Positions 61,841 through 61,930 of a DNA stretch of 64,000 bases are shown one piece after another; positions within the stretch are counted from its first letter, which is position 1, and each line of letters opens with the position of its first letter. The stretch is from Ostreococcus lucimarinus (Eukaryota). The position numbers and the translations under genes are program-made. The notes beneath the pieces are model-generated. The model was not told the origin of the DNA and did no database searches. It saw nothing but the letters and a program-made list of their open reading frames with translations. The DNA is taken from NCBI GenBank assembly GCA_000092065.1, contig CP000595.1; one strand, 5' to 3'.

Positions 61841-61930
61841 GTCTTTGGGTGCGATCGCGCGATCGATCGATCGCGCGTCGCGAAACGCGATCGATCGATC
61901 GCGTTTCGCGCGCCGCGATCGACCGGTCAA
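61841..61930. repeat. Nested perfect palindromes (18 bp CGCGATCGATCGATCGCG; 32 bp CGCGAAACGCGATCGATCGATCGCGTTTCGCG)
   Basis: Read directly in gtgcgatcgcgcgatcgatcgatcgcgcgtcgcgaaacgcgatcgatcgatcgcgtttcgcgcgccgcgatcgaccgg. Both strings equal their own reverse complements. Located in the 650-bp divergent intergenic region. Confidence 0.8.

Follow-up and report, generated by a model that had tools for sequence, protein, structure and literature searches.

Perfect palindromes between divergent PCIF1-like and CCCH zinc-finger genes of Ostreococcus lucimarinus: probably a young, length-polymorphic repeat beside a conserved telo-box

In bacteria, yeast, and humans, quasi-palindromes are classically known to be "corrected" by template switching, and palindromes to stimulate deletion. 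The palindromes analyzed here lie in a 64-kb stretch of Ostreococcus lucimarinus DNA (contig CP000595.1; "the window" refers to this whole stretch), which is gene-dense and has a G+C content of 63% and a CpG observed/expected ratio of about 1.8 (1.77); they occupy the upstream DNA common to two divergent genes, which encode a PCIF1-like protein (minus strand) and an RGG-rich CCCH zinc-finger protein (plus strand), and they adjoin a telo-box. These palindromes are real, non-random, polymorphic, and lineage-specific, and they are built from the ordinary divergent-promoter vocabulary of this algal group; they probably represent a young, lineage-specific, length-polymorphic, low-complexity tandem and inverted repeat in the upstream region that the two genes share. 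Telo-boxes of Arabidopsis and rice are located from about -60/-80 to +140/+180 relative to the transcription start site (PMC2576244). In Ostreococcus and Micromonas, 6-methyladenine (6mA) at ApT sites has been described at the 5' ends of active genes, along with inter-nucleosomal (linker) 5-methylcytosine at CG sites (5mCG) further along gene bodies and CpG enrichment (PMC12695648). A light/dark transcriptome study of Ostreococcus does not include a motif analysis (PMC2850359), and our literature search on GATC/CGCG palindromic arrays in Ostreococcus promoters found no description of them.

An exhaustive palindrome scan located the 18-mer CGCGATCGATCGATCGCG, which is its own reverse complement, at 61858 and 61886, i.e., as two copies in direct orientation 28 bp apart. 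These copies and the structures built around them are as follows.

61856-61877: 22-bp perfect palindrome CGCGCGATCGATCGATCGCGCG, maximal, holding the first 18-mer copy (61858-61875)
61879-61910: 32-bp perfect palindrome CGCGAAACGCGATCGATCGATCGCGTTTCGCG, spacer-less, with the second 18-mer copy (61886-61903) as its core; the longest palindrome in the window
61858-61922: tandem repeat with a 28-bp period, 2.3 copies and 86% matches, found by Tandem Repeats Finder (TRF) and by an independent repeat search
61861-61928: 68-bp quasi-palindrome, spacer-less, with 34-nt arms that are 85% complementary
61852-61865: 14-bp palindrome CGATCGCGCGATCG, overlapping the left edge of the array and surviving in an allele with a 56-bp deletion (see below)
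61904-61911, plus strand: TTTCGCGC, a match to the E2F consensus TTTSSCGC that is made by the right arm of the 32-mer and is probably incidental

The original prediction had described an 18-bp and a 32-bp exact reverse-complement palindrome as partially nested. Sequence reading and the exhaustive scan agree that both palindromes exist, and the 18-mer extends to 22 bp at its first copy; however, the 22-bp and 32-bp palindromes are adjacent rather than nested, with a single base (T at 61878) between them. Neither (GATC)3 nor the 18-mer has any further copy in the window outside the array at 61858-61910, as had been stated. The 28-bp unit consists of CGCG(GATC)3GCG followed by a 10-bp tail and is repeated head to tail, as in a tandem repeat; TRF also reported a period of 4 (CGAT; 5.5 copies) in the array, and a 46-bp quasi-palindrome is present beside the 68-bp one. 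Folded as DNA, 61861-61928 forms one long hairpin (-37.7 kcal/mol, z = -2.76), which was equaled by 2 of 200 shuffled sequences. With its spacer-less symmetry (32 bp perfect, 68 bp imperfect), the array has the sequence that a cruciform requires, although extrusion is a predicted capacity only. No family reached its threshold in an Rfam scan of the array; mir-m107-1 scored highest (26.8 bits, with a gathering threshold of 83) and matches both strands as a generic hairpin.

Natural variation at this locus was assessed on contigs carrying the CCCH protein in 452 blocks of a public assembly collection. The first allele comparison was an alignment of six metagenome contigs; further alleles were found through N-terminally extended CCCH gene calls that translate upstream DNA and were then confirmed on the DNA. 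Five structural alleles of the region are present in marine metagenome contigs, with lengths of 108 bp (the window state), 100 bp, 52 bp, about 20 bp, and 0 bp; those differing from the window are listed here.

0-bp allele (L002): lacks exactly 61820-61927 (108 bp)
52-bp allele (L141; P0121): lacks exactly 61858-61913, i.e., 56 bp or two 28-bp units
About 20-bp allele (L142; P0147 and, independently and with different single-nucleotide polymorphisms (SNPs), P0150): ACGCCGCGTTTCGCAACGGT replaces the 108 bp
100-bp allele (L143; P0148 and, independently, P0153): lacks the small 8-bp palindrome GACCGGTC beside the telo-box

The 52-bp allele, found in one contig, represents a whole-unit difference in natural populations, and the 56-bp segment that it lacks is delimited by copies of a direct repeat, CGCGATCGA, at 61858-61866 and 61914-61922. 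The about 20-bp and 100-bp alleles were each found in two contigs that differ by SNPs. Smaller changes include SNPs in L004 and L005, of which the one in L004 breaks the first palindrome, as well as a 1-nt insertion (P0152) and an A-to-G substitution (P0153) in the left arm of the 32-mer; another contig has a scaffold N gap at the palindromes (L003:9740-9835). The array is thus deleted or altered in L002, L141, L142, L143, L004, P0152, and P0153 and is not conserved within the species. Where it is absent or broken, the CCCH proteins encoded by the alleles still have at least 99% identity across the 299 residues in common, and every allele keeps the flank TCGTAAGGCTCGTGGCC...ATATAG... and the motif CAAAACCCTA(G/A)G.

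When the empty site in L002 (...AAATGCG/CAAAACC...) was set against the filled site in the window (...AAATGCG/ACGCC...CCGGT/CAAAACC...), no target-site duplication was seen at the junctions of the 108-bp indel. The segment ends, ACGCCGCGCG... and ...GATCGACCGGT, are not reverse complements of each other; its symmetry is internal, without terminal inverted repeats. When the 108-bp segment was searched with blastn in the window and 143 loci, it matched only its own locus, with at most 28 bp in common elsewhere.

The array is also missing from related species. CCCH homologues in sister species are 64-66% identical to the window protein and lie in the same gene order as in the window (EMC2, MRS2, 2OG oxygenase, a small gene, CCCH, amino-acid transporter, JmjC, and Rieske). 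No GATC palindrome is located upstream of the CCCH gene in the sister contigs L012-L016, and the palindromes therefore do not show, in these contigs, the cross-species conservation that would be expected of a transcription-factor site. The adjoining element presents a different pattern.

61928-61939, plus strand: telo-box CAAAACCCTAGG, adjoining the palindromes

The core of this element, AAACCCTA at 61930, has no second copy in the window, and the sister species retain the telo-box as AAACCCTA(G/A)G; in L012, L013, and L014, GGAAACCCTA(A/G)G is found about 100 bp upstream of the CCCH ATG (L012:5901, L013:5899, and L014:1599), within otherwise unalignable DNA. This conservation is meaningful because, by our own estimate, AAACCCTA would be expected only about 0.005 times per 350-bp region of such composition. 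With the core retained near the gene 5' end in all alleles as well as in L012, L013, and L014, the telo-box, and not the palindromes, appears to be the conserved sequence-specific element of the PCIF1/CCCH promoter, and it is likely a cis-element. In the sister species, a CATATGG abuts the telo-box, a weak hint that the locus may ancestrally have been in its short state. The four bases just 3' of the telo-box (61940-61943) are hypervariable among haplotypes (CCCG, GCGG, TGTT, TAGT, TATT, CACG, and CCTG), and the approximately 160 bp between 61943 and the CCCH ATG are almost invariant.

The palindromes were compared with chance expectation in 60 simulated 64-kb sequences for each of the Markov orders 1, 3, and 5 (180 in total). 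Palindromes of at least 32 bp occurred in none of the 180 simulations, and palindromes of at least 22 bp were seen in 17-35% of them; the window contains four of the latter, compared to 0.2-0.45 expected. The 32-mer is beyond chance, and long palindromes as a class are over-produced in the O. lucimarinus genome. Palindromes of at least 14 bp are concentrated in divergent gaps of the window (4.1 per kb); their densities per kb are lower in tandem gaps (1.7), convergent gaps (0.8), and coding DNA (0.36), which represents an 11-fold higher density in divergent gaps than in coding DNA; a 24-bp palindrome at 43414 is likewise within a divergent gap. Clusters of CG-only palindromes of 14-24 bp were also observed at 43413-43480, 14383-14772, 35901-35948, and 55704-55773, within or edging divergent gaps. 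The second-longest palindrome of the window (28 bp, perfect, TCGCCGAGCGTCGCGCGACGCTCGGCGA, 3439-3466) is located outside divergent gaps, inside or near the 3' end of a predicted gene on the minus strand (3393-4409).

The 18-mer recurs at other loci. An exact scan for it covered 2.9 million viral contigs and the metagenome contigs of the Joint Genome Institute (JGI). Only four matches were found in the viral contigs, none of them reaching a CpG observed/expected ratio of 1.55; in the JGI metagenomes, the 18-mer is present on at least 120 contigs. Among the matches listed, to which the locus counts below refer, 43 of 120 contigs were classified as algal-type (CpG observed/expected of at least 1.55) and represent 29 distinct loci, one of which (L137) is the window locus itself. 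Genes on these contigs were mapped with a codon-usage open reading frame (ORF) predictor that was trained on the window and that reproduces the public gene calls for 52.6-63 kb. Sixteen of the 29 loci are verified divergent intergenic regions, seven are one-sided, with the 18-mer always 5' of the gene that is visible, and six have the 18-mer within 205 nt of a predicted ATG; none is on the 3' side of a gene, in a convergent region, or deep in coding sequence, even though approximately 85% of the DNA is coding. The original prediction was to be abandoned if the same palindromes occurred at hundreds of random genomic positions. The 18-mer does recur, on the at least 120 metagenome contigs mentioned above, but its positions are not random, as the algal-type matches listed are all at gene 5' ends. 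At the listed loci, the 18-mer lies 32-444 bp from the nearest ATG, with no preferred position. The 18-mer is usually surrounded by further GATC, CGATCG, and CGCG sequence, including long (GATC)n runs at some loci. Loci sampled more than once have indels of 16-82 bp next to the 18-mer, and indels of 5-82 bp separate samples in the flanking GATC/CGCG tracts (L032/L075, L036/L072, L105/L108, and L069/L095), indicating that hypervariability is general to such tracts.

The composition of divergent promoters was analyzed in 374 kb of sequence after masking of ascertained sites, including 61 divergent, 77 tandem, and 70 convergent intergenic regions. Frequencies of three words per kb are given below.

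CGCGCG: 30 in divergent regions, 7 in coding sequence, 6.3 in convergent regions
CGATCG: 5.6 in divergent regions, 1.5 in coding sequence, 1.1 in convergent regions
CGCGATCG: 4.1 in divergent regions, 0.65 in coding sequence, 0.24 in convergent regions

Divergent regions are generally composed of CpG-dense words, such as CGCGCG, CGATCG, GTCGAC, and CGCGAC/GTCGCG, and CGATCGCG is present in 21 of the 61 unascertained divergent regions, a 6-fold enrichment over coding sequence. The counts of 8-mers agree with the expectation of a Markov-6 model, and the observed/expected ratio of CGATCG ranges from 1.14 (dinucleotide model) to 1.55 (order 2). Class-specific Markov models of orders 3-4, trained on unascertained sequence, assign a predicted 65-76% of 18-mers to divergent regions, 12-18% to the initial 210 nt of coding sequences, 4-5% to tandem regions, and approximately 0% to convergent regions, which is essentially the observed split. 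The palindrome words are therefore neither over-represented beyond composition nor found at a preferred position. The E2F words TTTCGCGC, TTTGGCGC, and TTTCCCGC have frequencies of 0.06-0.18 per kb in divergent regions, not above those in coding sequence.

These patterns can be joined in a mutational scheme for the locus. The array may have started from a short seed, GCGATCGCGCGATCGACCGGTC, which is the state seen in the 52-bp allele (L141), and may then have gained two 28-bp units, each a (GATC)3 run capped by CGCG, through replication slippage or tandem duplication. Template switching on the resulting quasi-palindrome could then have made the arms CGCGAAA...TTTCGCG exactly complementary, and hairpin formation would have rendered the tract prone to deletion, giving rise to the series of alleles. 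Long palindromes would readily result from duplication of promoter words, since these words are self-complementary or occur in complementary pairs, and the many indel alleles would be expected because palindromes are prone to hairpin-mediated deletion. The hairpin capacity of the array more plausibly explains why the array is unstable than serves a function. As a specific sequence, the array would be dispensable at this locus, and any role would be compositional only, as a CpG- and ApT-dense promoter spacer; no sequence-specific role of the palindromes is supported, and a role at the level of composition may exist.

Several points weigh against regarding the array as a young repeat of this kind. 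The 32-bp perfect palindrome far exceeds Markov expectation, and even within divergent promoters the 18-mer would be expected at no more than about 1e-7 per site; some process amplifies such tracts, and selection for the tracts may be involved. The exclusive placement of the 18-mer at gene 5' ends among the 29 listed loci also fits a real promoter element, and the very composition that "explains" this placement may be under selection. Algal-type contigs were defined solely by their CpG observed/expected ratio (at least 1.55), and the gene map of the metagenome contigs rests on a crude in-house codon-usage predictor. The 56-bp-deletion allele and the 0-bp allele are supported by one contig apiece. 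Finally, the alleles derive from metagenomes assembled from short reads, and de Bruijn assembly is disturbed by palindromes. Contigs often end at, or within tens of bases of, the 18-mer (L036, L037, L068, L072, L075, L079, L095, L137, L138, and L139); perfect palindromes appear to break short-read assemblies, biasing what can be seen of their surroundings.

Among the functions that had been suggested for the palindromes, a dimeric transcription-factor site would be a sequence-specific, bidirectional-promoter element at many Mamiellophyceae promoters, with a CGATCG/ATCGAT reader, a CGCG-box reader, or E2F on the TTTCGCGC arms as candidate factors. Such a site would fit the central position of the array in a divergent promoter, the 5' placement of the 18-mer at all 29 algal loci among the matches listed (16 of them verified divergent), the 6-fold enrichment of CGATCGCG over coding sequence (21 of 61 unascertained divergent regions), and the E2F consensus match at 61904. 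However, the array is absent or broken in alleles with CCCH proteins that are at least 99% identical, it is missing from the orthologous promoters of the sister species, its distance from the ATG (32-444 bp) shows no preference, and composition models reproduce the placement bias with words that show no Markov excess; the suggestion of a dimeric-factor site thus found no support and is quite improbable. The E2F reading of the arms was rejected, as divergent regions show no enrichment of E2F-type words and the whole-array-deletion alleles L002 and L141 no longer have the site. A chromatin element acting at the level of composition is an unlikely explanation too, but one with a real chance of being correct; dense symmetric CpG and ApT sites would keep a nucleosome-depleted, specially methylated zone between the two promoters, with selection on the kind of sequence rather than on its order and hence fast turnover. 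The richness of divergent promoters in CGCGCG (30 vs. 7 per kb in coding sequence) and CGATCG (5.6 vs. 1.5), the presence of the tracts in many lineages in spite of their rapid turnover, and the published 6mA/5mCG pattern of Ostreococcus and Micromonas (PMC12695648) are consistent with this idea. On the other hand, the published 6mA signal is downstream of transcription start sites rather than between them, the 0-bp and about 20-bp alleles indicate that the locus tolerates loss of the tract, and CGATCG barely exceeds its dinucleotide expectation. A broader and more speculative proposal, which we rate as distinctly unlikely, is that CGATCG/(GATC)n-CGCG arrays are functionally maintained across the lineage in Mamiellophyceae bidirectional promoters, either as a nucleosome-excluding or methylation-patterning tract (symmetric ApT 6mA and CpG 5mC) or as a degenerate platform for dimeric factors, and that they are kept by turnover and not by position; 61856-61910 would then be one active instance, with its indel alleles acting as PCIF1/CCCH expression variants.

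Insertion of a mobile element similar to a miniature inverted-repeat transposable element (MITE) as a 108-bp segment would explain the clean 108-bp presence/absence polymorphism and the internal inverted symmetry, yet the segment has no target-site duplication, its termini are not inverted repeats, and the existence of intermediate alleles (100, 52, and about 20 bp) speaks for local indels that arose step by step. The 108-bp segment matches only its own locus among the window and 143 loci, with no more than 28 bp shared elsewhere. For lack of a target-site duplication, terminal inverted repeats, and a second copy among the loci compared, the MITE reading was rejected as very improbable, and with it the earlier idea that the palindromes are the footprint of a small inverted-repeat element. 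The earlier suggestion of a hairpin- or cruciform-forming element is supported with regard to folding capacity only (-37.7 kcal/mol, z = -2.76; a spacer-less 32-bp perfect palindrome). A functional cruciform or hairpin, such as a replication-origin or recombination-hotspot signal, or a structured RNA is again highly improbable, as the array is not conserved, 2 of 200 shuffles fold equally well, and similar tracts occur in a third of divergent promoters; the structured-RNA version was rejected given the best Rfam score of 26.8 bits against a gathering score of 83, with no family near threshold.

The genes flanking the array have the orientations and identities described in the original prediction, as follows.

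60125-61672, minus strand: PCIF1_WW-domain gene, 515 amino acids, left partner of the divergent pair
62102-63001, plus strand: CCCH zinc-finger/RGG-rich gene, 299 amino acids, right partner of the divergent pair

The CCCH protein (62102-62998) is identical to XP_001421668.1/ABO99961.1, annotated as "predicted protein [Ostreococcus lucimarinus CCE9901]", and shows weak Pfam matches to CCCH zinc fingers along with RGG-rich low complexity. The intergenic region had been given as 650 bp, a length of about 650 bp that results only if PCIF1 starts at the ATG at 61450; four of six contig gene calls and the codon-score predictor place the start at the ATG at 61672, which leaves a divergent gap of 429 bp with the palindromes almost at its center (184 bp from one start codon and 192 bp from the other). 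On the minus strand, a spurious open frame continues upstream from PCIF1 across the palindromes to 61930, which is why some gene callers extend either gene over them. Candidates for the true PCIF1 ATG are 61672, 61732, 61804, and 61450, and a long (CGT)n repeat with a 24-bp period at 61457-61650 encodes the Thr/Arg-rich, low-complexity N-terminus of the PCIF1 ORF; the length of this repeat differs among haplotypes, with nine extra bases in L002. The PCIF1_WW gene is missing from the syntenic slot (positions about 5100-6000 in L012, L013, and L015) in L012 and L013, two related species, and the slot in L015 and L016, a third lineage, is filled by a 417-amino-acid ORF unrelated to PCIF1. The nearest PCIF1 homologue (60% identity; L007-L010) is located in a different gene neighborhood, and that of Pseudoscourfieldia marina (L011) is also non-syntenic; these differences in the PCIF1 slot point to lineage-specific relocation or insertion of the gene. 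These PCIF1 homologues (L007-L010 and L011) were dropped from promoter footprinting as non-syntenic, and the syntenic CCCH homologues were used instead.

The locus itself, as a fast-evolving and dispensable repeat, would be of little import, but it cautions against taking every perfect palindrome in a CpG-rich picoalgal promoter for a binding site; the telo-box beside the repeat is the better candidate cis-element for the CCCH gene. More generally, long palindromes and (GATC)n/CGCG tracts of Ostreococcus-type genomes would be found almost exclusively in divergent promoters, as indel hotspots, with relevance to promoter engineering in O. tauri, to indel markers for population genomics, and to metagenome assembly, where contigs break at these tracts. 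If the chromatin explanation were true, the tracts would tie the sequence of promoters to the 6mA/5mC partition that has recently been described for prasinophytes.

Compared with known systems, the array resembles promoter micro- and minisatellites that evolve by slippage in its head-to-tail (GATC)3 and 28-bp units (2.3 copies), in its location in non-coding 5' DNA, and in alleles that differ by whole units (56 bp, i.e., 2 x 28 bp) along with small indels; it differs from them in that a self-complementary unit makes the array palindromic as well, and in that several alleles (the 108-bp, about 88-bp, and 8-bp indels) are not changes in unit number. The perfect arms CGCGAAA...TTTCGCG within an imperfect 68-bp palindrome are similar to the products of quasi-palindrome correction, a mechanism that is suggested here by the sequence pattern alone, and the deletions take palindromic pieces, including the 8-bp GACCGGTC, as in palindrome-stimulated deletion. 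The CpG-dense, strand-symmetric upstream region, in which palindromes and CG-rich words are concentrated, resembles CpG-island-like bidirectional promoters; unlike in vertebrates, however, the whole Ostreococcus genome is CpG-enriched (1.77) and its gene bodies are reportedly CG-methylated in linkers (PMC12695648), so the contrast between promoter and genome has a different basis. Finally, the putative promoter element CAAAACCCTAGG, retained in all alleles and in the sister species near the gene 5' end, resembles the plant telo-box (AAACCCTA); this likeness concerns the neighbor of the palindromes and not the palindromes themselves.

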